From: a virus
Taxonomy: Duplodnaviria > Caudoviricetes
IMG/VR virus record: IMGVR_UViG_3300021964_000051
Coordinates: 1,786 to 65,785 of that record
Strand: one strand, 5' to 3'
Length of the DNA stretch: 64,000 nt
Part shown: positions 11,754-63,608 of the stretch, in pieces
How the letters are laid out: every line of letters starts with the position of its first letter
Position numbering within the stretch: position 1 is the first letter of the stretch
Position numbers and translations under genes: made by a program
The notes under the pieces: generated by a model
Seen by the model: only the letters and a program-made list of their open reading frames with translations
Told to the model about the DNA's origin: nothing
Database searches by the model: none

Positions 11754-12647
11754 ATGAAAGTAGTATATGGACACACAGATTCAATTTATGTGCAAATTGA
11801 TTCTGTTGAAACTGCTGAATCTGCAATTAAGCAGATTGAGGCAAAAGTGCGAGAGCATTTTCCTAATGTAATGGGACTGGAAAATCATCCTGTTGTTCTT
11901 GAATTTGAGAAATACTATTCTGCTTTGGGTGTTGGAACAACAAAGAACCGCAACGCTGGATTAGTTTCTTGGGAAGATGGAGAATGGTTAGATAAGCCAA
12001 AGTTTAGTATGACTGGTTTTACTGCAAAGCGTGTTAGTGAAACTAAATTAGCAAAAGAAGTGCAAACTAATACTCTTAAAATGTGGGTTGAACAAAAATC
12101 TTATGCAGAAATTACTAAGTATTTGCATGAAACCTTTAGCGCAGTAAATAACGGTGAAATTCCTCTTGCTTCTATTATTAAGAGAAGTCGTCTAAGACAA
12201 AACAGATTTACTGTTAAATGCCCCGATTGTAACACTAAATATAATTTAAGAAACTGTTCTACTTTACCGCACAAAGTTTGCGAAAAGTGCGCTACACCAA
12301 CGAAGCAATTCACCACTCTTGAAGGAAAGAAACCTACTATTGGTTCAGGAATTGCTGGTGTTTTATACGCATGGGAAAAGAAAAACACTAATTTTGATGA
12401 CTCTTATCTCTTCTTAAAAGTAAAGAGGGTAAATGATTTCTATACCCATCCTTTAACTCAAGAAAAGCGAGAAGTTGAATACTTATCAGGCATAACCTAC
12501 GAGGATTTTGAGGGTTGTAGTCCCGATTGGGACTTCTATTCTCAACAGGTGGTTAAGAAGGCCGACCCTATTTTCAAGGCGATGGGGTGGGATATAGCGT
12601 CTATACGGACGGGAAAAATACAAGCAAGCCTTGACGAATGGTGGTGA
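11754..12647 (+). CDS. polB: family B DNA polymerase, C-terminal half (motif C, thumb)
   Basis: Begins MKVVYGHTDS (motif C variant), then LEFEK, KNRNAG, a CxxC..CxxC insert and a C-terminal PIP box QASLDEWW; has its own GGTGA RBS. Confidence 0.93.
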   Translation: MKVVYGHTDSIYVQIDSVETAESAIKQIEAKVREHFPNVMGLENHPVVLEFEKYYSALGVGTTKNRNAGLVSWEDGEWLDKPKFSMTGFTAKRVSETKLAKEVQTNTLKMWVEQKSYAEITKYLHETFSAVNNGEIPLASIIKRSRLRQNRFTVKCPDCNTKYNLRNCSTLPHKVCEKCATPTKQFTTLEGKKPTIGSGIAGVLYAWEKKNTNFDDSYLFLKVKRVNDFYTHPLTQEKREVEYLSGITYEDFEGCSPDWDFYSQQVVKKADPIFKAMGWDIASIRTGKIQASLDEWW

Positions 12648-38225: not shown

Positions 38226-38519
38226 TTATTCACCTATAAATACATCTAATCCAATAAATTCTCCTTCTATTTTCTTTTCGTAGTTCCAAAAAAGTTCTCC
38301 GTTAAATTCATCTTCATCGGCATATCTCATTTTCCAACCTAAATTGTTCAGTTTTCTATTTAATTCATCCCAATTCACATCTAATGGAAACAGTAAATCA
38401 ATATCTTTTGGATTATCCTTTTTTCCGACAGAACCAACAATTTTTGGTTTAAATTCCTTTAAATCATCAAGCAAAGAATTAGCAATAGAAACATAGTTTT
38501 TGAGTATGCTAAACCACAT
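38226..38519 (-). CDS. minimal (Pol beta-like) nucleotidyltransferase with a WxxILK leader
   Basis: IVGSV...KDIDLL...LDVF; starts MWFSILK. Confidence 0.75.
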   Translation of the reverse strand: MWFSILKNYVSIANSLLDDLKEFKPKIVGSVGKKDNPKDIDLLFPLDVNWDELNRKLNNLGWKMRYADEDEFNGELFWNYEKKIEGEFIGLDVFIGE

Positions 38520-39184
38520 ATCAATGCCCCCACCTAAAAATATTTATTTAACATCATTTCTAAATGTTTTATAGCATCTTCCATCTCATATTCTGTAATT
38601 CCTGCACTTCTTCTAAGATTTTCTTCATCTTTACTCGTTAAAGAATTATTTTTCATTCTTTGTAATAATTGTTTTCCTAATTCTGCTACTTTTGAATCTG
38701 GTAAATATTTATATTTGGGGGTATCAGGCATTCTTCTATCTATTTTGGAAGGGAATTCTTTCCCTCTTGGGGTAATGTTTCTTCTAGTGTCAATAAACAT
38801 CCAATAAATCTTATCTTCCGTATCTTTATAATTAGCGTAGCCTTCATCCATTCGCATTGAAAAATCTTGGTCTGTTTTAAGAGCCTGTTTAATTGTGGGT
38901 TTTGCTTCATTTTTATATGAGGATTTTTGTTCAGGAACGACCTGTGAACCGAAGAAAGCATAACATAAGGCTTCATCTAATCTAGGAGTCCAATGTAAAG
39001 TGCTATCTTCATACCTTCTATTTTCTGGTAAATTTGAAGTTTTTCCTTGTGCGCCTTGAAATAATTTATTAAATTTAAATCTCATGTCATACGGTTCGCT
39101 GTCAGTTTCTCCGGGATTTACAATTTCTCCATGTATAACATATGGCTTTTTTAAAATATCCCACCACATATTAATGCCCCCACC
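38513..39184. repeat. 22-nt direct repeat pair at 38513-38534 and 39163-39184 (1 mismatch)
   Basis: accacatat(c/t)aatgcccccacc at both ends of the 38534..39169 gene. Confidence 0.85.
38534..39169 (-). CDS. WxxILK-leader protein, possible ADP-ribosyltransferase-like fold (paralog of 63123..63608)
   Basis: MWWDILK; LFQG...HWTP..DEA..YA..GS...KPTIKQA. Confidence 0.6.
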   Translation of the reverse strand: MWWDILKKPYVIHGEIVNPGETDSEPYDMRFKFNKLFQGAQGKTSNLPENRRYEDSTLHWTPRLDEALCYAFFGSQVVPEQKSSYKNEAKPTIKQALKTDQDFSMRMDEGYANYKDTEDKIYWMFIDTRRNITPRGKEFPSKIDRRMPDTPKYKYLPDSKVAELGKQLLQRMKNNSLTSKDEENLRRSAGITEYEMEDAIKHLEMMLNKYF

Positions 39185-40827: not shown

Positions 40828-42180
40828 TCAAAGGAGATTGGTAATCTTTCCTTGGCCCTTGAAGTAAGAACAACCAGTTTCAGCCATTGTGCGGTAAAGA
40901 GCCTTGTTTCCAAGAGAACCGACACCGAATGGGTTTCCGTTGCTGATACCATCTTCAAAGTATTGTGTAGGCTTCATCACAGATAGCCACAAATGGTCAG
41001 TATCAAGGAAAAGCATATCACTAATCAAAGAACTGTTTGTTCCAGTAGAAGGCATAGCCGCAACAGGAATCAAAGGAATGTCGTAGTAAGTAGAAACACG
41101 GAAACCGACTTCTGCACCCTTAACACCACGAACACCGTTCACAGTAGGAACGATTTCCTTTCTATCCATGAAACGCTCTTGAGCCTGAAGCAAGTCAGAA
41201 AGCGTTTGAAGAGTATCATATCCCGTAAGAATGACCTTTGGCGAACCACCAGCAACACGGAGTCTGCGAACCATGTCGTTAATCACAGTAAGCGTCAATT
41301 GTCGTGCTTCTGCGGAAAGGTAGCCATCACCGAAAGAAATCTCGGAGTCTAAATACTCATTACCAGCCGCACTTCGGAGTTTTCCGTAAAGAGTGTCAAT
41401 TTGTTGGTCAGTAGCCGTTCCAACAAGGTTTCCTCCAGCATTGTCAGCCAATTCATCAATTTCAGCAGAACTGCTCACAATCTTGTAAAGAGAAGTGTAT
41501 GCTCTATCAATGGCGTTTGCCGTAGCATATGCCGTAGTCGGAGAATAGTTCTCCAAAGGCATAACAAGCATTTGATTCTGCACTTCAGCGTGATGCTTAC
41601 CCATATCCTCTCTCAATTGCGCTCTAATATCACCGATACCATCGTCAATTTGAGCCATTTCCATAGCCAATTCGCTGAAAGCAAATTGATGAGCGATGAT
41701 TTTTGGACTGGTAAAGAGCGTATCATACTCAGGAGCAATTGAAATCAAACCATCCGTATTTGAATCAAGGCTGGCGTTTTCGGGAACACCACCAATTCGG
41801 TCAGCACGAAGGGCATCAGCACCATAAAGTGAATCAGCGAGAGCCGTGTTAGAAGCGGCAGAAATGTCCAAAAAGTTTCCAGCACCACCAGCAGGTCGCT
41901 TTCTGAGGATTCTCCAACCACTTGACGAATAAGGACGCTTTGCGATAACAGACAATGCGTTGCATTCTCGGTTTAGCATAGACCAGACCTTTTGGCCGTA
42001 AATCTTGTTGTAAAGGTTTGCATTAATACCCGTTGGGTCGCTTAACGAACCATCGTGAGCGACATGAATACCGCTAACGGTTCCTGCCGCTTTAAGCAAT
42101 TGGTTGCTAATATGACCAGTTGCGCCCGTTCCGTAAGTTTGTGCTTCTAAATCTGCAATAGTGTTAATATATCCTACCAT
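40828..42180 (-). CDS. major capsid protein (HK97 fold)
   Basis: 450 aa directly downstream of the protease/scaffold gene; composition and GC-richer codon usage fit a highly expressed gene. Confidence 0.85.
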   Translation of the reverse strand: MVGYINTIADLEAQTYGTGATGHISNQLLKAAGTVSGIHVAHDGSLSDPTGINANLYNKIYGQKVWSMLNRECNALSVIAKRPYSSSGWRILRKRPAGGAGNFLDISAASNTALADSLYGADALRADRIGGVPENASLDSNTDGLISIAPEYDTLFTSPKIIAHQFAFSELAMEMAQIDDGIGDIRAQLREDMGKHHAEVQNQMLVMPLENYSPTTAYATANAIDRAYTSLYKIVSSSAEIDELADNAGGNLVGTATDQQIDTLYGKLRSAAGNEYLDSEISFGDGYLSAEARQLTLTVINDMVRRLRVAGGSPKVILTGYDTLQTLSDLLQAQERFMDRKEIVPTVNGVRGVKGAEVGFRVSTYYDIPLIPVAAMPSTGTNSSLISDMLFLDTDHLWLSVMKPTQYFEDGISNGNPFGVGSLGNKALYRTMAETGCSYFKGQGKITNLL

Positions 42181-42191
42181 CTTAAATCACC

Positions 42192-43361
42192 TCAAAGGTT
42201 TCCTCCAACCATTTTATGAATGTCAGCCCAATCCATTTCGGCTAATTCTTCCATAGTAGGGAGTTTGATTTGGGCTTCTTCTTGAGCCTTAATGATGCTA
42301 TCTCTTTCAGTCGTCAAAGACTTTCGGAGAGCAGTAAATTCCTGCTTAAGAGAAGCAATTTCGCTTTGTGCATCATATTGCGACTTAGCGAGAATGTGTT
42401 CTCTTGAAGAGGTTTCAGCATTGAAACGAGCCTCAAATTGCTTTTGGAGGTTATCGTAAGCCAATTTCTCCAATTGTTCTTGACGGAAAGCCTCGTAAGC
42501 CTTCTCAATGTTTCCAACGGACAAATCAAGAGTTTCTAATTCTTGGTTGTCAAATGCCTTAACAACGGGCAAATCCGATGCTCTTGGCTTTCCGTTGTCA
42601 ATAACGACTCTATCGGCAGGTTCACCGATTTCAACGCCAGCACCGTCAAGGGTAGAAACATAAGCCTTTGCTTCGGAATCACCGTAGCCCATGCTTTCTT
42701 CATCTTCTTCCATCGGCATACCCTTTTCATCTGCGGGCATATCCATACTTTCCTCTTCTTCTTCTTTACGGAGCATATTCACTTCTTCCATCAAAGCGTC
42801 TAGTTCCGCTAATGCTTTTTCAATTTTGGTCATATTTTTCACCTTTTTATCTTGCTTTAAAATGTCAAATTTTGCTTCTGGATTAATTCCTTTTTCACAA
42901 ATAGTGACTTCGTGTAATTCTAACTTTGAAATTTCATTGTATTGTCCAAATTCATCATTGGTTTTCTTTACTTTTTCTAAAGCCTGTCCTCCAATACTGA
43001 AACTTCTTAATGAACCTTTTCTAATGCCTCGGTTAATTTCTTTGGCTTTTTCAATATCATCTCTTAACTTAATAACAACAAAGAATCCAACATCATCAAC
43101 TTCAGTTTTCCATATTCGTCCTGTTTTATCTCGGTATGATTCAACAACTTCCCCAACTTGAACATTTGAATGATTAGTCATTACATTTCTAAACTTGGGG
43201 TTCTCCATATATTTTTTAACAGCATCATTGAGTGCTTTAAGTGTAATTAAGTCATTTTGCTTATCAACGATTTCAATGCTTGCATATCCACCAATCATTA
43301 ATTCGTCGCTTTTTAGAATCCTGAAATCTTGAGTTGTGTTTCTCATCACAGCAGAAGTCAT
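42192..43361 (-). CDS. prohead protease fused to a scaffolding domain
   Basis: IGGYAS..VDKQND, H in MTNHS, SFSIGG and EVTIC..GINPEA; acidic coiled-coil C-terminal half. Confidence 0.9.
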   Translation of the reverse strand: MTSAVMRNTTQDFRILKSDELMIGGYASIEIVDKQNDLITLKALNDAVKKYMENPKFRNVMTNHSNVQVGEVVESYRDKTGRIWKTEVDDVGFFVVIKLRDDIEKAKEINRGIRKGSLRSFSIGGQALEKVKKTNDEFGQYNEISKLELHEVTICEKGINPEAKFDILKQDKKVKNMTKIEKALAELDALMEEVNMLRKEEEEESMDMPADEKGMPMEEDEESMGYGDSEAKAYVSTLDGAGVEIGEPADRVVIDNGKPRASDLPVVKAFDNQELETLDLSVGNIEKAYEAFRQEQLEKLAYDNLQKQFEARFNAETSSREHILAKSQYDAQSEIASLKQEFTALRKSLTTERDSIIKAQEEAQIKLPTMEELAEMDWADIHKMVGGNL

Positions 43362-43390
43362 TCTTCCTCACCCCTACTAACCAATATCCA

Positions 43391-43400
43391 GTATATAAAG
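43391..43400 (-). promoter_or_regulatory. archaeal TATA box upstream of the protease-capsid operon
   Basis: CTTTATATAC on the - strand about 30 nt upstream of the protease ATG, in one of the few intergenic gaps. Confidence 0.6.
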
Positions 43401-43405
43401 AACAC

Positions 43406-46387
43406 CTAATCCTCAACAGGAAGGGGCAATTTGTTATACCTATCCTCATAAATATTCCACTTTCCTTCATCCCCGTCTTTATCAGCAGGTTTTTGTTTGA
43501 ATCCTGTCCATGCTAACCACATAGACTGTCCATCAACTTCAATGACTCTATAATGCATTTTAGTTTCAAATTTATTGCCTTCTAAGAAATATTCATGGTA
43601 GCCGTCCCTTTGAATACCTAGACGAATTTTACCAGAATCTATAAGTTTTCCCTTAGAAACAGTCTTTGCTACTTCTGCTGGATATTTACCAGCCGCACCG
43701 AATAAGTCAAACATCTCTTCTTCATTTTCAATGTTAATTGTCCAGAACATATTTTCTGTTTTAAGTTTAATTGCTAGAGTTAAATTATCATCTTCTCTAG
43801 CATAAATTTTAAATTCTCCTTCTCTTAATTCAGGAGGTGTTTTATATTCTCCTTCTACTGCTTTAATATCCTCTTTTAGCATAGCATATTTATCACTAAA
43901 ACCAGAGTCTCCGTGAACGCATTTTTGATATTCTTCTAAGGCTCGTTTTAGTTCACCTATATCTACCCCATCTACGGTAGTATCAAAAAATTCTTCAACT
44001 ACTTCCACTAATATTTCACATTTTAAAGTATCTACTGCATTATTCATGGCTTGCACTTCTGCCTCATAATTGTTTTCCCAATTATCCTCTTCAAATTCTT
44101 CTGGTCTTGACAAAACATCTTCATATAGTTTTTCATAACTGCCATAATATCTAATATGAGCGTCTAGGGTTTGTTTTCTGTTTTGTTTAATGGCTTCCTT
44201 TAAATTGCGACAACATTCATCATCTTCGTTTGTATCAATTTGAACTGCATCATCTTCTTCTGCTTCTTCAATGATTTCTTTAGTGCGAACCAATTCAGCC
44301 ATTTTAGTTAAACTTTTTTTAATTTCCTCTTCCTGCATAATTTTATCATCATCAGCAGCAATTTTATTATCTTTTTCACTAATACCGTCTCTAAGGACAG
44401 CCCATTGTTTTAATTTCTTTTCACTAGAATCAAGAACTTCTTCATATAAGTCCTTATGTTTTTCTTTCAAAAAATTATGTAATTGTCTCGGAGTCTGTTC
44501 TCCATTTAATTTTAGGTGCTGAAACATAGCAACAGTTAATTCACTTTGTTTAGTTTTCATAATGTCCAATGCCTGTTGCTTCCACATATCTAAATCCATA
44601 GTAGCGTTCTTAGACATTAAATTATTTTCTTCATATCCATAAATAGTAAATCCATCTAAATCATATTTTATGATTACATTTGCTTCTCCGTGAATATGGT
44701 CTGTAATTTTAATACCTTTCTTAAATGCTTCAACATTATAGTTTAAAGATTTTTTGGTGTCTTGAGACAATAATTCCAAAGTGACTAATTTATCGGGATG
44801 TTCAACTTCAGGAACTTCAATTACTTTAGCAGAAAATAAACTATACCCTTCTCCTTTCTTTTTAACTTCATCCACTTTAACTCGGATAATATCTCCAATA
44901 TCAACAGAAATTTTAGTATTTAAAGCCCTACCTACATTTAAGTATTGTCTTTTATTAACATCAACTGTTCCTTCCATTTCTTCTGTGATTGGCCCAACAC
45001 CAACACTATAAGAATAAAGATTACTCTTGGTCTTTTTCTTGTCAAGAACAATAACATCTAAATCAACAAACTTTTTCCATTTAATCCACTTAGGATTTTT
45101 CTTTGTTCCGATATAATAAGTTGAAGTAGAGTCTTTAATAACTACTCCCTCAGAAGCAGGGTTTTCCATAATTTCTTTTGAATACTTTTCAATATCCTTT
45201 AAGTTATCTGCTTGTCTTGTATCTTTCTTTGATGGGAAAGCAATCACTTCATTTGTTTTTGAAGAATAATTGTTGAATAATATAGTCATTCTATTTTCTA
45301 ATTCCTCATCAGCGAGAGTTTGAGATTCATGTCGTATAATATCAAAGACATGACAACGCAGTTTTGCATCTTTGTATTTTCCTTTGAAAACATGAGCGAT
45401 AGTATCTGCTCTATGCAAGGGTTCACCTTCATCATCAAATAGAACTAATTCACCATCTAAAATACAATCACCATATTCTTTCTTTTTAAGTTCCTCAACT
45501 TGTTCTTTACATTTCTTAGTAATGTCTTTTTCATTATAAGAATATATTGTAACTTTGTCATCAATTTTATGTAATTGAACTCTCATACCATCATATTTTT
45601 CTTGAACATACCAATTTCCACTAAAGCCTTTTAATTCATTAATGTCATCTATTTCAAATATTCTATACATGGGTTTATTGGGAACAATAAATTGTGAAAT
45701 TGATTTTTTCTCATCACTTGGAACAGACTTAGAAAGACCTTCAATATCAATTAATTCTTCCCATTCTTTTTGTTCTTTCTTAGAAAAGAAAATTAGTTCT
45801 AACATATCCATAGCAGCCTTTACTTTAGATTCAACTTTCTTTGAGTCTTTTCCATCCCCGTAATGCTCAATAATATAGAGGGCTACATCGTCTGATTCTA
45901 GGTCAAGTCCGATAAGACCCTCCGTAATTGTGTCGGGGGTCATGCCTTTAACCTCATAAATGTCATCAGATAGTGCTTTATTGTTGTCTCTTATTGCATA
46001 ATGCACAAACTTAACCATAGATTCGGGATTATCTAACAATTCTTCAAGAACACCATCCTTGAACATGGAGGCGAAGGGGTCGTCCACAATGGACGAAGAA
46101 TAACGAAGAAGTTTAATATTTTCAAACAGTTCTTTAGCCTGTCTTGAAGTAGGGTCTTTAGTGTCCTTATCTTCTAAATTTTTTTCATCAATAAAGTTCC
46201 GCATTTCTTTTCCTGCGGCATCTGTTTCATTATATGATTCAATGATAGTATCAACTGCTTTACGCCAACGACCACTATACTCATTAGGGTCTTGCTTTGC
46301 AGATAAATAGGCTACTCTTGTCTTTTCAAATAGACGAAGAATTTCTTGAGAAGGTTGTTTATCCTTCTCAATAGAAGCCAACTTCAT
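43406..46387 (-). CDS. large multidomain protein with an ATP-dependent DNA ligase domain
   Basis: EKYDGMR, LDGELV, VFDII, EGVVIK, WIKWKK and an OB-like region, with long extra N- and C-terminal regions. Confidence 0.85.
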   Translation of the reverse strand: MKLASIEKDKQPSQEILRLFEKTRVAYLSAKQDPNEYSGRWRKAVDTIIESYNETDAAGKEMRNFIDEKNLEDKDTKDPTSRQAKELFENIKLLRYSSSIVDDPFASMFKDGVLEELLDNPESMVKFVHYAIRDNNKALSDDIYEVKGMTPDTITEGLIGLDLESDDVALYIIEHYGDGKDSKKVESKVKAAMDMLELIFFSKKEQKEWEELIDIEGLSKSVPSDEKKSISQFIVPNKPMYRIFEIDDINELKGFSGNWYVQEKYDGMRVQLHKIDDKVTIYSYNEKDITKKCKEQVEELKKKEYGDCILDGELVLFDDEGEPLHRADTIAHVFKGKYKDAKLRCHVFDIIRHESQTLADEELENRMTILFNNYSSKTNEVIAFPSKKDTRQADNLKDIEKYSKEIMENPASEGVVIKDSTSTYYIGTKKNPKWIKWKKFVDLDVIVLDKKKTKSNLYSYSVGVGPITEEMEGTVDVNKRQYLNVGRALNTKISVDIGDIIRVKVDEVKKKGEGYSLFSAKVIEVPEVEHPDKLVTLELLSQDTKKSLNYNVEAFKKGIKITDHIHGEANVIIKYDLDGFTIYGYEENNLMSKNATMDLDMWKQQALDIMKTKQSELTVAMFQHLKLNGEQTPRQLHNFLKEKHKDLYEEVLDSSEKKLKQWAVLRDGISEKDNKIAADDDKIMQEEEIKKSLTKMAELVRTKEIIEEAEEDDAVQIDTNEDDECCRNLKEAIKQNRKQTLDAHIRYYGSYEKLYEDVLSRPEEFEEDNWENNYEAEVQAMNNAVDTLKCEILVEVVEEFFDTTVDGVDIGELKRALEEYQKCVHGDSGFSDKYAMLKEDIKAVEGEYKTPPELREGEFKIYAREDDNLTLAIKLKTENMFWTINIENEEEMFDLFGAAGKYPAEVAKTVSKGKLIDSGKIRLGIQRDGYHEYFLEGNKFETKMHYRVIEVDGQSMWLAWTGFKQKPADKDGDEGKWNIYEDRYNKLPLPVED

Positions 46388-46392
46388 ACTAA

Positions 46393-46929
46393 TCATCTAT
46401 TTTTTTGGTATTCGGAGTCTAAAGTTTCTCCTGAATATTCCGAATCATAAGCAATCGTTTGTTCAGGAATTTGAGATAATTCGCTTTCAAGTTCCATTAA
46501 TTTCTTATTAACTTCAACAATTCTATTCATCATCTCATTCTGTTCATCGGGTTTAGCATCCTTGATTTGTTTAGATAACCCAGTAAGCATAGCAGATAAA
46601 CCATCAATTTGTCCAATCAATCTCATTCTTTGTTCATGGTCTAACATAGGATTAGTTTCATAATCTTCAGGTAAAATGTTCTTTAGAATCTTAACCATTT
46701 TAGTTACTTCACCAGCATAAGCATGAAGAGTAGTCGGGCCATCATTTGATTCTGCCTTGTAGTTGTAATTTTCAGCCTTTGGTCGCTTCAATTTAACTGC
46801 TTCTGAATCATCATCTTCTGGACTACGGTTGTTGTCCATTAAGGATTGATAAAGCATTTCTTTTGCTTCTCTTGCTTTTTGAATCATAATACTGATTTTT
46901 CTTTCTTCTCTAGTAACTCTTTGAGGCAT
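46393..46929 (-). CDS. hypothetical head-region protein
   Basis: ORF with a GAGTGA RBS; coiled-coil C-terminus. Confidence 0.65.
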   Translation of the reverse strand: MPQRVTREERKISIMIQKAREAKEMLYQSLMDNNRSPEDDDSEAVKLKRPKAENYNYKAESNDGPTTLHAYAGEVTKMVKILKNILPEDYETNPMLDHEQRMRLIGQIDGLSAMLTGLSKQIKDAKPDEQNEMMNRIVEVNKKLMELESELSQIPEQTIAYDSEYSGETLDSEYQKNR

Positions 46930-46934
46930 TTTAA

Positions 46935-47180
46935 TCACTCCATCTTTGAAACCATTTTATGAATATCAGACCAATCCATGCTAGAAACATCGGTAGTGGG
47001 TAATGAATCAAAACCACCAACAGTATTATCCATAGCAGGTGTTGGACTTTGTGAAACAACAAGACCCGCCTTCATCAAAAGACTGTCTTTTGCGTAGATT
47101 GTCTTTTCTAATGCTTCAACCTTTGCGGTCAAAGCCTTGATAATTTCTAAAACATCTTTGTTAATACTTTCTTCTGTCAT
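46935..47180 (-). CDS. small scaffold-like protein
   Basis: Coiled coil plus C-terminal MDWSDIHKMV, nearly identical to the scaffold C-terminus. Confidence 0.7.
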   Translation of the reverse strand: MTEESINKDVLEIIKALTAKVEALEKTIYAKDSLLMKAGLVVSQSPTPAMDNTVGGFDSLPTTDVSSMDWSDIHKMVSKME

Positions 47181-47184
47181 AATA

Positions 47185-47439
47185 TCACATTCCAAATTTA
47201 GCCTTGCACCTGTCTCTTTCTTCCATATATTCTTTTTCAGACATTCCGCCCATTCCAAATTTCTTATTCAAACGGTCTATACAGGCAAGATAACTTTGAG
47301 AATCTAAAGTGCTTCCCCTCATGGGCTTTCTTCTACTTCCGCCTCTAAATCCTGCTGAACTCAGTCCTCTTCCTTTTGATACTTCATTACAGTCATCACA
47401 ACCGCAACCATGTGCCTTTAATATATTTTTCCAACTCAT
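47185..47439 (-). CDS. WxxILK-leader Cys/Gly/Arg-rich small protein
   Basis: MSWKNILKAHGCGCDDC... Confidence 0.7.
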   Translation of the reverse strand: MSWKNILKAHGCGCDDCNEVSKGRGLSSAGFRGGSRRKPMRGSTLDSQSYLACIDRLNKKFGMGGMSEKEYMEERDRCKAKFGM

Positions 47440-47801
47440 TTCTTTTCCTCTCCTTTTCCACTAGGATAAACTAAATCTCTTAATTGCCGATAGAGTAACT
47501 CATACTCCTTACGCAACTTCGTAGCAGTAGCCACAATATCAATGTTGCGCTCATCCATAGACTTCATTTTTTTGTTTAATTTCTTATCTGACTTAGTTAA
47601 ATCTAATTCTCTAAGAACCTCAATAAGTTCACCTAATTTAGTAAAGTCTTGACCGAAAAACTCAGTTGGTTCTGCGGCTTGAAGAGTTTTCTTTAACTTT
47701 TTTCTTCCTTTAGCATCTAAAGAATCAAGAAGTTTTTTAGGTTCTTGTTTTTTCTCTTTGAGAATAAAATTATCACCATCACCATAATAGTCCCAAGTCA
47801 T
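47436..47801 (-). CDS. hypothetical head-region protein
   Basis: 121 aa, translationally coupled. Confidence 0.7.
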   Translation of the reverse strand: MTWDYYGDGDNFILKEKKQEPKKLLDSLDAKGRKKLKKTLQAAEPTEFFGQDFTKLGELIEVLRELDLTKSDKKLNKKMKSMDERNIDIVATATKLRKEYELLYRQLRDLVYPSGKGEEKK

Positions 47802-50017: not shown

Positions 50018-51658
50018 TTAATCAACTCTCCTTTCGGTTCTGTTGTCATTGTTTTGATTACCTGCATCTAATGGTAATCCCGAAAGTCTCTTATCGGGTG
50101 CTACGCTCATCCTGCTTTTATTCCTTGTGGCGGGTGGGTTCTCTTGAGGTTTCCCTCCGCCTTCCATAGCCTGTTCTTGCATCTGCCCTAGTTGTGAAGC
50201 ATCAATATTTGTTCCTGCATAGGGGTCAGGAGCCGCTTGTTCTCCTTCACCTTCTGCTGGCGGTTTTTCTTCGGGTTCAGGTTTCTTAAAAGTAAAGTTA
50301 CCATCTTCATCCATATCAACATCAAATCCTAAATTTTTAGTTGATGCTGCGATATTAACTTCTATTTCACGCTTACGAAGAACAGCAATTTCATCTTCTT
50401 CTTCGCTCGGTGGTAATTTCAAATCCCAATCTGTAATTCCAAATTGTTTAACAAGGAACGGAAATACATAATTATTATACACAGTTTGTGCTTTTTGAAC
50501 TGCACGATTTGTTACGAGGATTTGCATACCTTCATTGTTTAATCCACCGCTTGTAGTGTTATCAGCCATGAATACTTTACTTACACCATAGAACGCTGAA
50601 ATTCTATCTCGCAAATCATCTTTAACAGAAACATAATCCATTTCCTTAAGACTATCCATGAACTTAATCCATTCAACTGCTCCCTTACCACTTTCTGCTT
50701 CAATTCCCATAACTGGGATAAAATGAGGGTCAGCCTCCATTTTTTCTTTTACTGAACGCCAAAAAGAACGCATTGAGTCCATATTTCTAGTTTGAACTGC
50801 AAGTAATCCTCTCGGCATTCTGCTCTTAGTATAAGATTGATTAACATAGTTTTCCATAGCAATAAGAGTCATAATATTATTAAATAAAGTAATAACAGGA
50901 GACATACCATAAAGACGAGAAGGACTATATTTACTAAAATGTAATACTTCTCCCTTTAAAAAGTGCTGGTCTTCCCCATTTACTCTATTAACATAATGAA
51001 TAGGAAATAAATTACTATCACAGACTTCACATCTTTCGTGAGGGTCAGGATGAATGACTCCACGATGATTTACACAAGTGAAACCTTTAGTTCCTCTTTG
51101 TCCATTTTCATCACTATAAATAAACATAGTAACTGGGTCGCCACGATAAATTTCTTTAATTCTATGCATTCTAATTTTACCATTACCATCAATAAAATAT
51201 TCTTTAACCAAAACAATGTAAGCATCGTCCATGATATTTAAATCATCTTCAAGTTCTTGAAGAACATCAATAAATAGTTGTTCAGATTTATTAACATATC
51301 CTTCAATGAATCTTTCAGCATATTCTAATTGTTTAACATCAGGAATTTTTAAATCAGGACTTTTACAACGAGAACATTCTTGAACAGGTCTTTTATGTTC
51401 TTTTCCACAAGAATTACATAGTGCTTCATAAGACTTTTCCCAAACATATCCTCTTCTAAAAACTTCTTGTTTTAGTTGAGTAATACAAGTTCTAGCAATA
51501 ACAGATTGATTAACAATATTATAGATAATTGGGCCAGTCATCATGTGATTGGTTTCCCTTTCTTGGATGCCCATATTGAAAACTTTTCTATCAGCAGGTT
51601 TAGGAGTTTGCCTCCTAAAGAGGTTACTAAAACTAAATCTTCTGCTATCTTCAGCCAT
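50018..51658 (-). CDS. portal protein with two zinc-ribbon insertions
   Basis: EVLHF..YGMSP, MPRGLL and ISAFYGVS portal motifs; CNSC..CSRC and CVNH..CEVC inserts. Confidence 0.9.
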   Translation of the reverse strand: MAEDSRRFSFSNLFRRQTPKPADRKVFNMGIQERETNHMMTGPIIYNIVNQSVIARTCITQLKQEVFRRGYVWEKSYEALCNSCGKEHKRPVQECSRCKSPDLKIPDVKQLEYAERFIEGYVNKSEQLFIDVLQELEDDLNIMDDAYIVLVKEYFIDGNGKIRMHRIKEIYRGDPVTMFIYSDENGQRGTKGFTCVNHRGVIHPDPHERCEVCDSNLFPIHYVNRVNGEDQHFLKGEVLHFSKYSPSRLYGMSPVITLFNNIMTLIAMENYVNQSYTKSRMPRGLLAVQTRNMDSMRSFWRSVKEKMEADPHFIPVMGIEAESGKGAVEWIKFMDSLKEMDYVSVKDDLRDRISAFYGVSKVFMADNTTSGGLNNEGMQILVTNRAVQKAQTVYNNYVFPFLVKQFGITDWDLKLPPSEEEDEIAVLRKREIEVNIAASTKNLGFDVDMDEDGNFTFKKPEPEEKPPAEGEGEQAAPDPYAGTNIDASQLGQMQEQAMEGGGKPQENPPATRNKSRMSVAPDKRLSGLPLDAGNQNNDNRTERRVD

Positions 51659-52420: not shown

Positions 52421-52795
52421 TCAACCTTTCCTCCTTTTATAAGTTTTACAAGCGGCACAGGTTGGTCGGCATCTTTGCTTTGTTCCTTTAGAAGCATCCT
52501 TTCTTCCGCAAGGTTTTGTTCCTTCCTTATCATCTTCGCAAGATTGACAAGAAACCCAACCTTTCTGTCCATCTCCACCTCTTCTTGAAAACCAACCGTG
52601 AAGTCCTTCCTCTTTTTCTCTTTTGAAATTATCTCCGCCTTTTTTTACAGAATTACCCCAATTCTTTGCACCGACCTTTCGGCATTGAACCAAAGCACCT
52701 GAAGCATAAGCAGAAGGCCATTTCTTATAACGACTCCGCACCTTATGATAACAGGCATCTTTTTCCTTTATGAGTTCTTCAAACCATAAGGACAT
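52421..52795 (-). CDS. basic Cys-rich protein with a W..LIK leader
   Basis: MSLWFEELIK; DACYHKV..RY..WPSAYASGALVQCRK and L..WF...GWV..KPCGR modules recalled from marine phages. Confidence 0.72.
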   Translation of the reverse strand: MSLWFEELIKEKDACYHKVRSRYKKWPSAYASGALVQCRKVGAKNWGNSVKKGGDNFKREKEEGLHGWFSRRGGDGQKGWVSCQSCEDDKEGTKPCGRKDASKGTKQRCRPTCAACKTYKRRKG

Positions 52796-54419
52796 TTAAA
52801 TCACCCTTCCAAACGCTTCCTTTTTCTTCCACATATAACTTAATATATGTATGCATTCTTCCTATCGCATAATTGTAATTATTTCCTGATTCATACATAT
52901 AATCTGCTATTTTTAATTCATGTAAAATTTTATTAAGTCTTTCATTGTCGTGTGATTTTCCTCTATTTAAAGATAAAATGTTTTTTGCTGTTTTAATAAT
53001 ATGTTCTACTGCGCTATCATCTAATCCTTTCTTTTGTCTTAAATAAGGCGTGGAACTTTTAATAACTGTTCCGATTTGTTCAAGCGAATCCATCACAGAA
53101 ATTTTACAATTATCTTTATATTTTTGAATATCGTCAAGATTAATATTTTCTTTTGTCCAATCAAATCCTACATGGTCTTTATGATTTTCCCACTTCATTA
53201 ATTTAAAAATTTCATCACATCTATTTTTATACCAGTCTGCTTTCTTGTATGATTTCTTCATACGAATCAATTCAAGAAGCAATTCAGCATTACCTTTCTT
53301 TAATCTAAAATGAGGTAAGCATTTTGTTAAAAGATTAGAAACATCTGCCTGTGAATAAAAATTTAAACGATTAATAAGACGAGTATCTTGTGGTGATTTT
53401 TGGTCTAAGTGCATACGGCCAAAACCAATTGATTTGTGCATTTCTTGCATAAAAGCCTTACCTCTTTCACCAGTAGCAACTAAACCTACTCTTGGGTTCA
53501 TATTACGGTCAAGAGTAATATAACCATCAGAGTCAATAAACGCAGCAGTATAAGCCCAAATATTTTTCTTTATCATTGAAGGAACTTTATAGTAAGAACC
53601 CTTCACAGAAACAATATCTAGTTTTTTAATTGCCTTTGAGATAGAATTAGGGCTTGCCGCTTTATGTAAAGTAGAAGGCATTCTTTCGTGAATACTTGAC
53701 GCATTAATTCCTGGATTTTCACAAACCATTTTGAGAATAAAATCATTTTGTCTTTCATTTTTTGATTTAGTAAGTGATTGGTCAGTAATTTTGTTAATTG
53801 CTCCTCTAAAATCTTTTTTAGCAGAACTCATAGTTTTATGTAAATCAGAATATTTTTTTCCATAAGCCATTCCTGTTTGCTCAATTTCTGCCTCCCAAAA
53901 CTTACAAAGAGCATCAATAGTCTCTCTTCTTAATTCAGCACTTTTCATCTTATGGAGTTTTGACAAATCTTTTTCGTTATAGCGCATCTTTCTAAGTGGA
54001 ATCTGATAATCATTTAACCAAGTTATAGAATCAATACACTTATTTAAATGGTCAGTATAAGCATCAATCATTGTATCAATTGCTTTTGACATTCGTGTTC
54101 GGTGTTCTCCTTTTAATGCACGACGAGCCTTTCTCATCTTTCTAACTAAATCGGGAATAGTATGTTCTTGAACAATGTATTCATTAGGAAATTCAGTTAA
54201 TCTTTTTCTTGCATCACTAGCATTAATGTTAAAAGAATTAGATAATTTAACGATTTCTTCATGCTCAGACATTACATAAGAATTACTAAAAACACTCTTT
54301 AATTCAGTATCTAATTGTTCCTCTATGGTATCTTTGACACTCTCTTCTTCTTCGTCTAAATCGGCCAAACGGTTCATTTGTTCAGCCGCTTGTCGGTATT
54401 TATCTGCCTGTTCTGTCAT
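52779..54419 (-). CDS. multidomain protein: helical N-terminus, HTH-like segment and LAGLIDADG endonuclease domain
   Basis: YTAAFIDSDGYI (LAGLIDADG helix), LPHFRLKK, and NPGINASSI...SISKAIKKL (HTH-like). Confidence 0.8.
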   Translation of the reverse strand: MTEQADKYRQAAEQMNRLADLDEEEESVKDTIEEQLDTELKSVFSNSYVMSEHEEIVKLSNSFNINASDARKRLTEFPNEYIVQEHTIPDLVRKMRKARRALKGEHRTRMSKAIDTMIDAYTDHLNKCIDSITWLNDYQIPLRKMRYNEKDLSKLHKMKSAELRRETIDALCKFWEAEIEQTGMAYGKKYSDLHKTMSSAKKDFRGAINKITDQSLTKSKNERQNDFILKMVCENPGINASSIHERMPSTLHKAASPNSISKAIKKLDIVSVKGSYYKVPSMIKKNIWAYTAAFIDSDGYITLDRNMNPRVGLVATGERGKAFMQEMHKSIGFGRMHLDQKSPQDTRLINRLNFYSQADVSNLLTKCLPHFRLKKGNAELLLELIRMKKSYKKADWYKNRCDEIFKLMKWENHKDHVGFDWTKENINLDDIQKYKDNCKISVMDSLEQIGTVIKSSTPYLRQKKGLDDSAVEHIIKTAKNILSLNRGKSHDNERLNKILHELKIADYMYESGNNYNYAIGRMHTYIKLYVEEKGSVWKGDLNVLMV

Positions 54420-54428
54420 ATAAATACC

Positions 54429-55859
54429 TCAAAAGTTCAAGCCTATGGTGGACGAAAAGCCCTGTTGTGGTCGTTGTGGCTCATCACCAAACAGTCCTAA
54501 ATCATCAAGGAGTATGAAGTTATCCGAGGCTTGGTATGTGGCCGCATTTGCTAAAGCAAGGCTCATCACCATGTCGTCATGCGCCCCAATTCCCTCAAAC
54601 TTTCCTCGTTCAGTAATCGCAAACATTGACATTTCTTCAATCAATAATGAAGAAACTTTTCTACTCTCTTCGTTGCCGTATGGAAAGTTAATCTTTCCAT
54701 TTTCAAGAGTCATCTGTAAATTAAGAATAATCTCCTGTTTCTTTCTTCGGGTTGTATCAAAATCATGAACATTTACATCAGCAACTTGCCGAAGTTCTTG
54801 AGTAAAGGATTTAGCAAATGTGTTTGTTTCAAACAGAATAACTTCTGGTCTAAAGACCTGATTTAGTAATTTTACCTTTTGAATGTTTTCACGAAACTGA
54901 ACATTTTTTGCTCTATCAACATAGACAATAGATTTATTTTCATTAGCGTCCATTTCAATGACAGTAATAACATTATAGTCGCCATCTGTTGAAATAGCAG
55001 GGTCTACGCCAATAAAATACTTATATCCTTCACGCTTCAAAGGCTTCAATACTAAGTCTTTATTCTTAGCATTCTCTAAATGTTCTGGACTAAACAAAGA
55101 AGTTCCTGTTGAAATCGGAACACACATATATTCTCTTGTGAACATCAATGAACCAACTTCCGCCTTACGAGCCATTAATGCTTCATAGTTCCAACGCTCA
55201 GGCCATAGCGGTTCGTTTAGTGCGTTTAAACAGGGGTAAGTTCTAACAGTATAAGCAGTATTTTCTGCTAATTGTTGGTAAATATCTGTATAACTGAAAG
55301 GAGTTCCAATGACACGCAAAGAAGCGGTGTGGTGAAGAGTAGGAATCATATCACCATAAAACCAATCAGTCACTTTTTGAATACCTGTCATACTAAACTC
55401 TTTCAAAGGGTCGTCAATAATAATTTCTTGAGGGTGAAGCCCACGAATCTGCGAACCAACCGACCTCTCAAGGATTTGGTTTCCATTGGTTAATGTAATG
55501 TTTCCAATAGCCCAACCTCTTGCGGGTTTAAACTTCTTAAGCATTGGATGGGTGAACATTTTATCAATGTCTCTCATGTGAACGAGAGTCTGCTTTTGGT
55601 TAGAAGAAATATAAAGCATTTGATATGGTGGCTCTTCAAAAATTAACTTCCATACAACCCAACTGTGCATAAATACAGATTTACCGTGGTCACGGGAACA
55701 AATAATAACTGTTCTTTGGGTAGTGTTCATTAATTCGTGCCATTCTTGAATATAGGAAGGAAAGTCAAAACCTAATACATTTTGAAAGAAATACGGAAAT
55801 GAATTGCGGGACAATTGCATATCCATTTCGTGTTCAAAATTGAAGGCTTCTAATTCCAT
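54429..55859 (-). CDS. terL: terminase large subunit
   Basis: Walker A SRDHGKS, RG motif, Walker B IIIDD, IGTP, nuclease GVDPA and HDDMVMS. Confidence 0.95.
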   Translation of the reverse strand: MELEAFNFEHEMDMQLSRNSFPYFFQNVLGFDFPSYIQEWHELMNTTQRTVIICSRDHGKSVFMHSWVVWKLIFEEPPYQMLYISSNQKQTLVHMRDIDKMFTHPMLKKFKPARGWAIGNITLTNGNQILERSVGSQIRGLHPQEIIIDDPLKEFSMTGIQKVTDWFYGDMIPTLHHTASLRVIGTPFSYTDIYQQLAENTAYTVRTYPCLNALNEPLWPERWNYEALMARKAEVGSLMFTREYMCVPISTGTSLFSPEHLENAKNKDLVLKPLKREGYKYFIGVDPAISTDGDYNVITVIEMDANENKSIVYVDRAKNVQFRENIQKVKLLNQVFRPEVILFETNTFAKSFTQELRQVADVNVHDFDTTRRKKQEIILNLQMTLENGKINFPYGNEESRKVSSLLIEEMSMFAITERGKFEGIGAHDDMVMSLALANAATYQASDNFILLDDLGLFGDEPQRPQQGFSSTIGLNF

Positions 55860-57937
55860 TAATACGCCTCCTCAAGTAATTTATCTACTTCTTCTTTTTG
55901 TTTTTTACCGATAAAAATGTTTTTCTTTCTATTATCTAAAATAGTCTTGTCAATCATCGGTCTTACATGGCCTATGGGTAATCGCCAGTTAAGTTTTGTT
56001 TGTAATATTTTATCTATTCTGTCTCTTGCATTTTGCTTTCTCTCAGCAGGAGATAGTGTTGAAGAAACGGCTGGTTTAGTTTCAGGCTTTTCTTCTTTTG
56101 GTTGTGTTTCAGGCTTAACTTTACCTTGCTTAAATGCTTCTAGGCTTGTTAAAAGTTTATTTTTCTCTTCTTCTGTCATTTTTTTATTACGGACTTCTTC
56201 TAATAATGCTGCCCCTAACTGCTGAATTGCTAATTGTGGGCCTAAACTACTCATAGTGACTCCATATTTATCTAATACTTCTTTTACTTCTGCAAAGGTT
56301 TTTTGAGGAATAACTTCTTCTTCCCACATAGGGTATTCATCTTTTACATCTCCCCTTTTATATCCAGCATCTTCATCAGAATATTGATGTTTAGGTTTTC
56401 CATAATCACCGTCATAAATTGTAGTGAAAACTACTGCTAAATCATAAGGATTTGTTGCTTTACCTGCACGAGAACTAGTTTTTGCCTGTTGTGGTAGGGT
56501 ATCTCCTTTACCAAGCATTTCAAAAACAATTATTTCATTTCTGTTAGGTTTAATATAAAACCAACCATGTTTAGAAGAAGGAGGATTACTTAAAATCTTT
56601 TTTGCGAACATATCTAAATCTTCTTCTGTATATATGTCAGTATTTTTAAGATATTGTTCACCCCTATAAATGTAATGCCCACTAACATAAACTCTTTCGT
56701 TTGTTGGAACATCTTCGTCCTTTTTAGCATCTCTCATAGAAACAGGTGCTTTACTTTTATATCCGCCAGCATCATGTGGCTTATAAAAGTCAAAATCAAC
56801 ATAACTACTATCTGGCCTCCACTTAAGAATATCTTTCCAAGACTTCTCAAAAGTTGGGAAAATATTCTTTGGTTCTTTTGGTAGTCTCCTATTATTTGGT
56901 TTTCTTCCCAATCCTCTCACCCCATATTTTCCATGAATGTTAAGAAATTTTCTTCCTTTTGGAATACCTTGTCCTCTTTTGACTTTACCGACCATTTCTT
57001 TGCTAACGCCTGTAAAAACAATAGCAGTTTCAAATCCTTCCAAATTAAGTTTCTTATCTGCGGTTGCTGTGTAAGGCTCTCCTTGTTTGATAACATCAAT
57101 CATAACATAAGTATTGTCTTGCTTTACATTTGTTCCAAAGAACCAGTATTTTCCTTTCTTTAGATTCATCTCAGTTAATTTTTCTAACCAACCTTTCATT
57201 AAAGTAGTCCCTGCATTTGGTATTCTGTCGCTAACCTGTCTTAAATATTGCTGAGAGACAAATGCCTTATATTCTGCTTTACCCTTTGACTTAATATTTT
57301 TGTCTTTAAATCTGTCTCTTGTTCCTAAGTCGGGTGCAGGTTCTCCCAACTCAAAATCATCCCAAGTGTTATCGGGTAAGTATTTGAGAAGATTAAACCA
57401 AGCAGGAGCAGGGTCGTCAAGATAGATACACTTAGCAAACTCACCCTTACCACGAATAGAACGAATAGCCCAATTACCATTAGGATATGCACTATTCCAT
57501 TCATTAACTACTGATTCGGGAAGCATTTGTTTTGCTTGTTCCCAATTCTCGCTATCTGGAAAAATCCATCCATTCTGTTTTGCAGTAGAAATCCAACGAG
57601 CATTATTACCATCCCTATGTCCAAAAGCAGCAACTAAAGGTTTAGATTGATTTAACTGTGGCTCTCTCGCATCCTGTAATGCACGATTATTTCCACCTAT
57701 TTCTCTTCCTTTAGCACTAGCATACATTCCACCAACAACAGTATGTGATGGGTGTTCTTTGAAGCCGACTGTTGATATTGCTTTATTATCATCATCAACA
57801 CGAATAAGCCAGTTATCTAAAGCATAAAGACCAGTTTCTAAATCCTTTCTGCGAGTATAAGGGTCGTCAGGGTTATCCTGAGCAAACCTTCTTTTCATAT
57901 CTTCATATGAAAATATCGCAGGAAGAACCTTAACCAT
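55859..57937 (-). CDS. modular protein (GNAT-like N-terminal domain plus two related domains) with internal WxxLLK/WxxILK motifs
   Basis: VGGMYASAKGREIGG resembles GNAT motif A; WFNLLK and WKDILK precede domains 2 and 3. Confidence 0.7.
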   Translation of the reverse strand: MVKVLPAIFSYEDMKRRFAQDNPDDPYTRRKDLETGLYALDNWLIRVDDDNKAISTVGFKEHPSHTVVGGMYASAKGREIGGNNRALQDAREPQLNQSKPLVAAFGHRDGNNARWISTAKQNGWIFPDSENWEQAKQMLPESVVNEWNSAYPNGNWAIRSIRGKGEFAKCIYLDDPAPAWFNLLKYLPDNTWDDFELGEPAPDLGTRDRFKDKNIKSKGKAEYKAFVSQQYLRQVSDRIPNAGTTLMKGWLEKLTEMNLKKGKYWFFGTNVKQDNTYVMIDVIKQGEPYTATADKKLNLEGFETAIVFTGVSKEMVGKVKRGQGIPKGRKFLNIHGKYGVRGLGRKPNNRRLPKEPKNIFPTFEKSWKDILKWRPDSSYVDFDFYKPHDAGGYKSKAPVSMRDAKKDEDVPTNERVYVSGHYIYRGEQYLKNTDIYTEEDLDMFAKKILSNPPSSKHGWFYIKPNRNEIIVFEMLGKGDTLPQQAKTSSRAGKATNPYDLAVVFTTIYDGDYGKPKHQYSDEDAGYKRGDVKDEYPMWEEEVIPQKTFAEVKEVLDKYGVTMSSLGPQLAIQQLGAALLEEVRNKKMTEEEKNKLLTSLEAFKQGKVKPETQPKEEKPETKPAVSSTLSPAERKQNARDRIDKILQTKLNWRLPIGHVRPMIDKTILDNRKKNIFIGKKQKEEVDKLLEEAY

Positions 57938-57943
57938 CAAACA

Positions 57944-62688: not shown

Positions 62689-63126
62689 TTATCTTTTCCA
62701 TGAAGGAATGTTCTTTTCATCAGTAGTCCAGCCTTCTCCGCCTGTTCTTTCCCATGATTGGGGATTAGAAAAATATTCTTGAATTAATTCCCATAATGCT
62801 TTTCTTTGGGGCAAGTTATCTTCTTGTTGCATAATTTCCATAAGAACGCCCGAAATAGTATTAGAAACACCATATCTACCTCTATTGAATTTATTTTTAC
62901 CTGAAACTTTTTTAAAGGCCGTTATAAATTTATCAACACCAACATAAGTTTTATCCTTTAATTCATATTGAATACCGCTTCCCATTTGGTCTTTAGTCAT
63001 AAAATCTTTCATTTCTTTTGGGTTTTCCATATCTTCCCAAGCATTAGATTCTTCTAAATAACTAGGGCCAGCAACGCCCTTTCTATCATGTTCAAATCTT
63101 GATTTGATTATATCTTTCCAACTCAT
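62689..63126 (-). CDS. WxxIIK-leader hypothetical protein
   Basis: Starts MSWKDIIKS. Confidence 0.75.
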   Translation of the reverse strand: MSWKDIIKSRFEHDRKGVAGPSYLEESNAWEDMENPKEMKDFMTKDQMGSGIQYELKDKTYVGVDKFITAFKKVSGKNKFNRGRYGVSNTISGVLMEIMQQEDNLPQRKALWELIQEYFSNPQSWERTGGEGWTTDEKNIPSWKR

Positions 63127-63608
63127 TGTAATCTCTCCTGCATTTTTTTAGCGTGTTGTATTCTTTCTTCATTTGAGTAAAACTGAGCAGTAGTTTCCAT
63201 CAATTGATTGAATTGTTCGGGTGAAGCATAATTGACCCCATTACTCTCAAAGTCATCATAACCGACAAACTCTAGTTCTCCAATCAATTCATCTATTGCT
63301 TCCTTAACTTCTTTATCAGAAACCAAAGTATAGTCTAACTTACCCATACCCGCCATTGTGTATTCGGGGTCATCTTCCAAATCAATGTTTTCTTTAGTTT
63401 CTTTTGCTTGTTTTATTGTAGGTTTTCCTATATTTTTCATAGGTCTTTTTGTATTGGCTTCGGAACCATAGACAGAATAAACTACGGCTTGATTAAAATA
63501 AGGAGTCCAATAGTTCGTATCTTCTTCTGATTGACTTCCTTGATATAAAAAGGGAGTTTCTGTCCCCCCAATAGAATATGGAGATTTCAAAACAGTTTTC
63601 CAACCCAT
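63123..63608 (-). CDS. WxxVLK-leader protein, paralog of 38534..39169
   Basis: MGWKTVLKSPY; LYQG..YWTP...A..YS..GS..KPTIKQA. Confidence 0.72.
   Translation of the reverse strand: MGWKTVLKSPYSIGGTETPFLYQGSQSEEDTNYWTPYFNQAVVYSVYGSEANTKRPMKNIGKPTIKQAKETKENIDLEDDPEYTMAGMGKLDYTLVSDKEVKEAIDELIGELEFVGYDDFESNGVNYASPEQFNQLMETTAQFYSNEERIQHAKKMQERLQ

Follow-up and report, generated by a model that had tools for sequence, protein, structure and literature searches.

The window considered here is 64,000 nucleotides long, belongs to a single contig of 65,785 bases (IMG/VR record IMGVR_UViG_3300021964_000051) and comes from a marine magrovirus-like archaeal tailed virus. Two of its late genes, those of the prohead protease-scaffold (42192..43361, minus strand) and of a small protein of 81 amino acids conserved in related loci (46935..47180, minus strand), encode products with the same C-terminal tail, a module of about 25 residues around MDW[A/S]DIHKMV. 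We consider it rather likely, with room for doubt, that this module is a shared procapsid-incorporation or docking signal on both proteins, the best candidate for its partner being the major capsid protein (MCP).

A tail common to two genes

The original prediction placed the motif at the C-terminal end of both proteins, and the translations bear this out. The protease-scaffold of 389 amino acids ends in AEMDWADIHKMVGGNL, and the open reading frame (ORF) 46935..47258 on the same strand ends in SSMDWSDIHKMVSKME, so that after the common core the two tails read ...IHKMVGGNL and ...IHKMVSKME. The small gene itself is the shorter frame, 46935..47180, as had been assumed: 102 distinct homologues in related loci begin at the Met equivalent to that of its start, MTEESINKD.

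At the DNA level, the two copies (42208-42236 and 46951-46979) are indeed identical at 27 of 29 nucleotides. The likeness ends at their edges, and the flanks of 60 nucleotides on either side do not align. Among 116 distinct locus pairs, the same codon is used at 322 of the 667 identical degenerate residues, against 280 expected; since codon sharing is near expectation, the constraint is placed on the peptide, and the two DNA copies are alike because identical peptides are written with the same AT-rich codon bias. A role of the repeat as DNA, be it a recombination site or a regulatory element, was rejected on the same two grounds, the unaligned flanks and the codon sharing.

The tail is confined to the two genes. 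No third gene in the window bears it, the next-best C-terminus scoring 21 against 51 for the pair, and in related loci the 5,653 other C-termini reach 26 at most. Chance occurrence was rejected on this comparison. A search of the texts of magrovirus papers, including PMC5434244, for the relevant terms found no mention of the tail or of the leader motif considered below; their supplements could hold such annotations.

The extent of the module follows from a profile comparison by hhalign of two alignments, A1 with 83 sequences of the small-protein family and A3 with 23 of the protease-scaffold family. Only the final 26 columns align (probability 95%, E-value 2.8e-8), and because homology is limited to them we take the unit to be a module of about 25 residues, with the consensus [L/V]-P-x-x-[D/E]-x-[L/I]-A-x-M-[D/S]-W-x-[D/E]-I-[H/N]-x-[M/L]-[V/A]. 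In the scaffold, it occupies residues 366-389 (KLPTMEELAEMDWADIHKMVGGNL; 42195..42266, minus strand), with the core motif MDWADIHKMV at 42207-42236; in the small protein, it occupies residues 58-81 (DSLPTTDVSSMDWSDIHKMVSKME; 46938..47009, minus strand). The Trp is invariant in both alignments, as W70 in A1 and as W378, one of the two invariant columns, in A3. The module is predicted to be helical: the AlphaFold2 model on A1 has a terminal helix at residues 70-80, which begins at the invariant Trp after a disordered linker. The linkers preceding the tails diverge freely.

Conservation of both C-termini across related viruses, which had been proposed as a check, was found. In the first 80 loci and the window, [ML]-[DEN]-W-x-x-IHKM ends 71 scaffolds and 38 small ORFs. 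Further loci were added using three more distant protease-scaffolds as seeds, giving 261 loci with a complete scaffold ORF, of which 135 extend at least 4.5 kb upstream and 126 less. A small ORF with a matching tail is present in 135/135 of the former, at a distance of 2.8-4.5 kb (median 3.3 kb), and is still visible in 19 of the latter. A further seed, P0130, defines a sister group of 74 loci (L291-L364) with a protease about 45% identical. Of its 44 loci that reach 4.5 kb or more upstream, 41 contain a homologous small ORF (LLRKAGFV...TP...M[ST]W..IH.MA), lying 6.1-7.4 kb upstream of the scaffold versus about 3.3 kb elsewhere. A scan seeded with the distant representative P0163 yielded two loci only, from a clade already sampled.

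More distant protease-scaffolds keep a looser tail, [ML]-[SD]-W-x-[DE]-[IV]. Run exhaustively on 1.84 billion representatives, phmmer gave 1,280 relatives at an E-value of 0.001 or below. The pattern [ML]-[STDNEKG]-[WY]-x-[DEQ]-[ILV] falls within the last 30 residues in 20 of the 150 best of them, compared with 1 of 2,200 internal control windows of 30 residues; the remaining 130 are in many cases fragments or of a different architecture.

The tails differ among clades, and the two genes tend to change alike. Examples, with the scaffold named before the small ORF, are IAKMDWSDINALVERLEG and IAKMSWDDINDLVDRLGG, KMSWDELHQVI and DKSWGELHDII, ISWSDIHSIVER and KMDWSQINNIIET, and MSWEEVHQLAG and MSWEEIHEMAE. 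Over 88 distinct pairs, which are phylogenetically non-independent, the tails of one genome are identical at 7.1 of 14 positions versus 6.07 across genomes, and none of 5,000 permutations reached the own-genome value. With the pairs collapsed to 10 clusters, the figures are 6.05 and 5.14 (permutation p: median 0.04, maximum 0.22). The co-variation thus lends weak support to a common co-evolving partner of the two tails.

The carriers, the probable partner and the alternatives

The product of 42192..43361 is, judged by its domains, a prohead protease-scaffold fusion. An N-terminal S78 protease domain (Pfam PF04586 Peptidase_S78, residues 22-177, E-value 7.6e-10, 39.6 bits against a curated cut-off of 21; PHROG: head maturation protease) is followed by about 210 acidic and helical residues, which comprise a coiled-coil scaffold region and the tail. 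The gene immediately precedes that of the MCP, ending 12 nucleotides before it. A sequence search of the PDB with this protein returned chance-level matches only (E-value 0.5 or higher). At the boundary between protease and scaffold there is an internal ATG (42831..42833, minus strand; Met177) with GGTGA 6 nucleotides upstream. Of the 19 A3 sequences that cover the site, 18 keep this Met (P0141 is gapped there), and four representatives, which may be fragments, begin exactly at it. A start at Met177 could produce a nested scaffold-only protein with the same tail.

In the 81-residue protein, an N-terminal helix is followed by a DNLLMKxG-xVV-SPTP segment, and a variable linker then leads to the tail. 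AlphaFold2 on A1 gives helices 3-29 and 34-37 besides the terminal one, with moderate confidence (mean predicted local distance difference test, pLDDT, of 66). The residues invariant in A1 are K15, L17, E25, L35, K37, G39, V41, P46, P48 and W70. Thus, apart from the tail, the protein has a second, independent conserved module with the consensus LLKELV.KV..LE..VY.KDNLLMKSG.VV..SPTP. It has no family in Pfam or PHROGs, and its clusters in the ESM Atlas consist of viral proteins labelled "hypothetical protein" throughout; a core gene that had been anonymous can now be named. The idea that the small ORF is a second scaffold or an adaptor fits this architecture, in which a disordered linker joins the N-terminal helix (3-29) to the helix of the tail (70-80).

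In characterised tailed viruses, the C-terminus of the scaffold or protease contacts the capsid protein, and for this reason we read the module as a procapsid-docking tail. According to the part of PMC5644958 that treats them, the scaffolding protein of phage 80alpha and SaPI1 CpmB each bind the N-arm of the capsid protein with a C-terminal helix and hook; in the relevant part of PMC12749128, contact of the scaffold end with the N-arm or spine helix is proposed as general, P22 and phi29 included. By this analogy, the partner of the tail described here is probably the MCP, putatively in the region of its N-arm and spine helix. The module would be a Pro-initiated amphipathic helix around M-[D/S]-W-x-[D/E]-I-[H/N]-x-[M/L]-[V/A]. 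Carried by the protease-scaffold fusion, it would let protease and scaffold co-assemble at the inner face of the capsid protein. Carried by the 81-residue protein on a flexible linker, it would recruit that protein, as auxiliary scaffold or adaptor, to the same assembly, and the N-terminal helix (LLKELV..VK.LE..VY.KDNLLMKSG.VV) may bind another copy of the protein or a second component. By analogy with known scaffolds, the tail would be released or digested at maturation.

The MCP (40828..42180, minus strand; 450 amino acids) was recognised by Pfam (SU10_MCP, E-value 4e-6) and PHROG (major head protein, E-value 3.2e-18). Its AlphaFold2 model is of moderate confidence (pLDDT 61), and a Foldseek search of the PDB with it gave weak matches (E-value 0.005 or weaker); HK97-fold shells, both encapsulins and phage capsids, lead them, with unrelated folds among them. 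The predicted complex of the MCP with the whole 81-residue protein scored 0.00 in both runs by ipSAE (interaction prediction score from aligned errors); the runs had no controls, and the value weighs neither for nor against binding.

Several observations weigh against docking of the tail on the MCP. Residues 1-89 of the MCP, the usual docking region of scaffolds, are modelled at pLDDT below 50. The co-variation of the tails is modest and confounded by shared ancestry, with a clade-level p of up to 0.22 in some resamplings; occasional gene conversion could partly explain it, of which the codon sharing shows little sign. The nearest named relatives of the protease, those of the haloarchaeal siphoviruses HVTV-1 and HCTV-1 (about 31% identity), match in the protease domain only; the HVTV-1 protease ends differently, and in HVTV-1 neither the protease tail nor a neighbouring small ORF carries the motif. 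Finally, in three metagenomic clusters (P0271-P0273; 166-177 amino acids) homologues of the small ORF, tail included, and of the next ORF (MPxxVTxEE...) are joined directly as an in-frame fusion. The tail is internal there, and a free C-terminus may not be required.

In the window, that next ORF (46393..46929, minus strand, within 46393-46938; MPQRVTREER...) encodes a helical protein of 181 amino acids without a family and is translationally coupled to the small ORF; the fusions suggest a functional link between the two. They also count in favour of a different partner. The tail might dock on another procapsid component, such as the portal, the coiled-coil core of the scaffold or this 181-residue protein, which would make the 81-residue protein an adaptor of portal or core. 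The small gene lies between the portal and protease genes amid unannotated helical proteins, and its highly conserved N-terminal module implies a second specific partner. On the other hand, the protease-scaffold, whose gene adjoins that of the capsid protein, has the same tail; the scaffold C-terminus contacts the capsid protein in the characterised systems, as far as PMC5644958 and PMC12749128 describe them; and we have no evidence specific to the portal. We give this explanation a minor chance, one that deserves to be kept in mind.

The tail could also be mainly a recognition or cleavage element of the prohead protease, which marks both proteins for removal at maturation without being a docking helix. 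Both carriers are expected to leave the head, and herpesvirus scaffolds are cut near the C-terminus, which frees them from the capsid protein. However, a conserved cleavage-like site was not identified in the tails, and their conserved face (M, W, I, M/L and V/A at helical spacing) resembles a binding surface. Cleavage and docking do not, moreover, exclude each other. As the main function of the tail, we consider it very improbable.

Docking on the MCP, which we continue to prefer, has precedents. The shared scaffold tail as a principle is already well known from bacterial viruses and herpesviruses, and the tail described here is a new sequence form of it in an abundant uncultivated archaeal virus lineage. 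Its closest analogues are best read as the pairs 80alpha scaffold/CpmB and lambda C/Nu3. In lambda C/Nu3 and in herpesvirus UL26/UL26.5, the genes are nested in frame, and protease and scaffold share one C-terminal capsid-binding end. The conserved internal Met177 with its Shine-Dalgarno-like site hints at a nested scaffold product of the lambda type here; unlike in both of these systems, the tail occurs a second time, about 3.7 kb upstream in a small gene that is unrelated.

As to the other pair, the part of PMC5644958 that concerns it describes the last 16-21 residues of the 80alpha scaffold (gp46) as an amphipathic helix plus hook on the capsid protein N-arm, and CpmB, of 72 residues, as having a dimerisation domain at its N-terminus and, past a linker, a homologous helix-and-hook at its C-terminus, which is bound to the same site. 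Here too, two separately encoded proteins have a homologous C-terminal helix, with hhalign homology limited to the tail, and the AlphaFold2-predicted layout of the 81-residue protein is the helix-linker-tail order of CpmB. There is no sequence relationship between the two sets of tails. The hook of 80alpha reads RIIK, whereas the window tails have no RIIK-like hook and are centred on M-x-W-x-D-I-H, so that they are an analogue and not a member of that family. CpmB is encoded by a satellite, which competes with its helper phage; in contrast, both tail genes here are core to one virus (135/135 loci).

The prohead protease of HK97 is of the same family, Peptidase_S78, and a segment at its C-terminus is regarded as directing encapsidation. 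A separate scaffold is absent from HK97, whose capsid protein carries a delta domain (so described in the pertinent part of PMC12749128). With encapsulins the likeness is one of principle only: a short C-terminal cargo-loading peptide docks cargo inside an HK97-fold shell; consensus and biology differ. Encapsulin shells are the top, though weak, structural matches of the MCP model.

If the tail acts as we presume, it would be a portable procapsid tag of about 25 residues, that is, a handle for heterologous reconstitution of the capsid, a means of recognising head-internal proteins in metagenomes and a candidate tag to load foreign proteins into an archaeal-virus shell.

N-terminal leaders and their relation to the tail

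A second motif, M-x(0-2)-W-x-x-[ILV]-[ILV]-K, begins nine ORFs of the window, all in the late operon on the minus strand and with Shine-Dalgarno-like sites upstream (starts at 38519, 39169, 47439, 50016, 52244, 52795, 63126, 63608 and 63864). The best example is a basic Cys-rich ORF of 84 amino acids (47185..47439) that starts with MSWKNILK, ranks first by profile score (29.8 bits) and has an AGGAG-like site upstream. The leaders are genuine, and they keep to N-termini and to the late-gene strand: in 289 related loci they occur within the first 34 residues of 441 of 5,429 + strand open frames versus 0 of 8,079 on the - strand, and the motif is found internally 18 times in 1.04 million + strand residues. 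Their carriers are unrelated, often small basic Cys-rich proteins, among whose orthologues the leader is gained or lost. The leader family, which most magrovirus-like loci conserve, may be a capsid-targeting or processing signal.

Among the leaders quoted in the original prediction, MWWDILKK (39169) and MSWKDIIKS (63126) do stand at ORF starts; KSWKDILKW does not. The latter, a perfect example of a leader-like stretch, lies at 56822-56839 (minus strand), at residue 366 of an unannotated protein of 693 amino acids (ORF 55859-57940), and no Met precedes it. It could be an internal docking site, or the ORF could really be two products.

Three further observations concern individual carriers. The ORF 47436-47801 (minus strand; 121 amino acids) begins with MTWDYYGDGDNFILKEKK, which looks like a leader broken by an insertion; its orthologues in other clades begin with the intact leaders MWELILK, MTWEYILK and MWERILK. 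The leader ORFs 38534-39169 and 63123-63608 (minus strand) look paralogous by eye, with ...W-TP... and ...KPTIKQA... after the leader. Besides the basic Cys-rich proteins, there is one carrier (ORF 38226-38519) whose product, judged by eye, looks like a small nucleotidyltransferase.

The original prediction held that these N-terminal leaders, M-x-W-x-[DEN]-I-L-K, mimic the scaffold tail, dock in the same capsid pocket and load cargo. The resemblance is non-trivial. We built a profile from 279 leaders of other loci and scanned it on the 19,633 positions of the window proteins; the two tails ranked 10th and 11th, which makes them the best non-leader matches bar two internal sites. The common register of tail and leader also stands as far as M, W, D, I and K go, and the presence of real, N-terminus- and late-strand-specific leaders on otherwise unrelated small proteins would suit a cargo signal. 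The likeness is nevertheless partial: the tails score 5.3 bits, and of the eight leader matches above them seven score 15-30 bits and the eighth 7.4.

Mimicry fits less well with the distribution of the two motifs. The leader consensus W-[KEQ]-[DEN]-I-L-K, with its L and K, is the same in 6 of the 7 tail-defined clades, though their tails read IHKM, DINAL, IHNLA, IHKAV, EVHLA or IHNIVE; the seventh clade (EEVNEL) offers only 8 candidate N-termini, without a consensus. The 74 loci of the P0130 group keep the tail on both genes, and a leader occurs there in 1 of 1,612 + strand frames versus 441 of 5,429 elsewhere. Taken together, the constant leaders across tail clades and the tail-bearing P0130 group indicate that the tail system is older than the leaders and independent of them. 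The leaders could be a later derivative of the tail. Mimicry with docking in a common pocket seems to us doubtful.

The closest model for the MSWxDILK leaders is the capsid targeting sequence of phage T4, a short N-terminal leader common to several unrelated head-internal proteins. Its presence on several unrelated late proteins is matched here; the other T4 traits, packaging into the prohead by means of the leader and removal of the leader by the prohead protease, are putative for the leader proteins of the window. To our knowledge, the T4 sequence has not been described as resembling the capsid-binding end of the T4 scaffold. It would be attractive to suppose a single docking logic for head assembly and cargo loading, in which an ancient scaffold tail (M-S/D-W-x-D/E-I-H) was copied to a small adaptor and later, in one lineage, turned into an N-terminal leader (M-S-W-x-D-I-L-K), by which each genome now marks at least nine unrelated late proteins for encapsidation through the capsid site that the tail uses. 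We regard this as unlikely. If it were true, it would amount to a programmable protein-packaging code in abundant archaeal viruses of the ocean.

The virus and the neighbouring genes

The window is Magrovirales group B-like. It combines a halovirus-like head module, in which a ligase and an HNH-like ORF are embedded, with an archaeal-type replication module. Groups A and B of the magroviruses are described by Philosof et al. (PMC5434244, in the part dealing with their genomes) as having a halovirus-like head module with a ligase and a homing endonuclease inside it, together with a split PolB and an archaeal replisome that is nearly complete; the embedded head-module ligase is mentioned there as well. 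The same source, where it treats abundance and hosts, counts magroviruses among the most abundant viruses of the ocean and names uncultivated Poseidoniales as the hosts.

Among 8,000 scored candidates, 3,816 homologous proteins were found at an E-value of 1e-5 or below, from marine metagenomes, and the capsid protein has 593 confirmed IMG/VR stretches. A search of GenBank phage DNA with the region gave no match, and the protein search gave halovirus protease domains only. Since the hosts are uncultivated, we know of no experimental work on magrovirus head assembly.

According to the Pfam and PHROG annotation, the minus strand from 18.5 to 64 kb is a single long late operon, which also contains the tail genes of the virion. 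Its head genes are, besides the MCP and the protease-scaffold, the large terminase (54429-55859), the HNH-like ORF (52779-54419), the portal (50018-51658) and the ligase fusion of 996 amino acids (43406-46396), all on the minus strand. The ATG of the 81-residue gene is 4 nucleotides past the stop of the preceding ORF. In the 996-residue protein, the ATP-dependent ligase domain covers residues 255-441 only, and about 550 C-terminal residues have no Pfam family.

Genes on the plus strand (1-18 kb) specify a second ATP-dependent DNA ligase, a clamp loader resembling RFC, a family-B DNA polymerase in split form and two nucleases, one of the PD-(D/E)XK and one of the ERCC4 type. The polymerase is divided between two ORFs, 9557-11191 and 11754-12647, about 560 nucleotides apart, which agrees with the split DNA polymerase reported for magrovirus group B1 in the corresponding part of PMC5434244.

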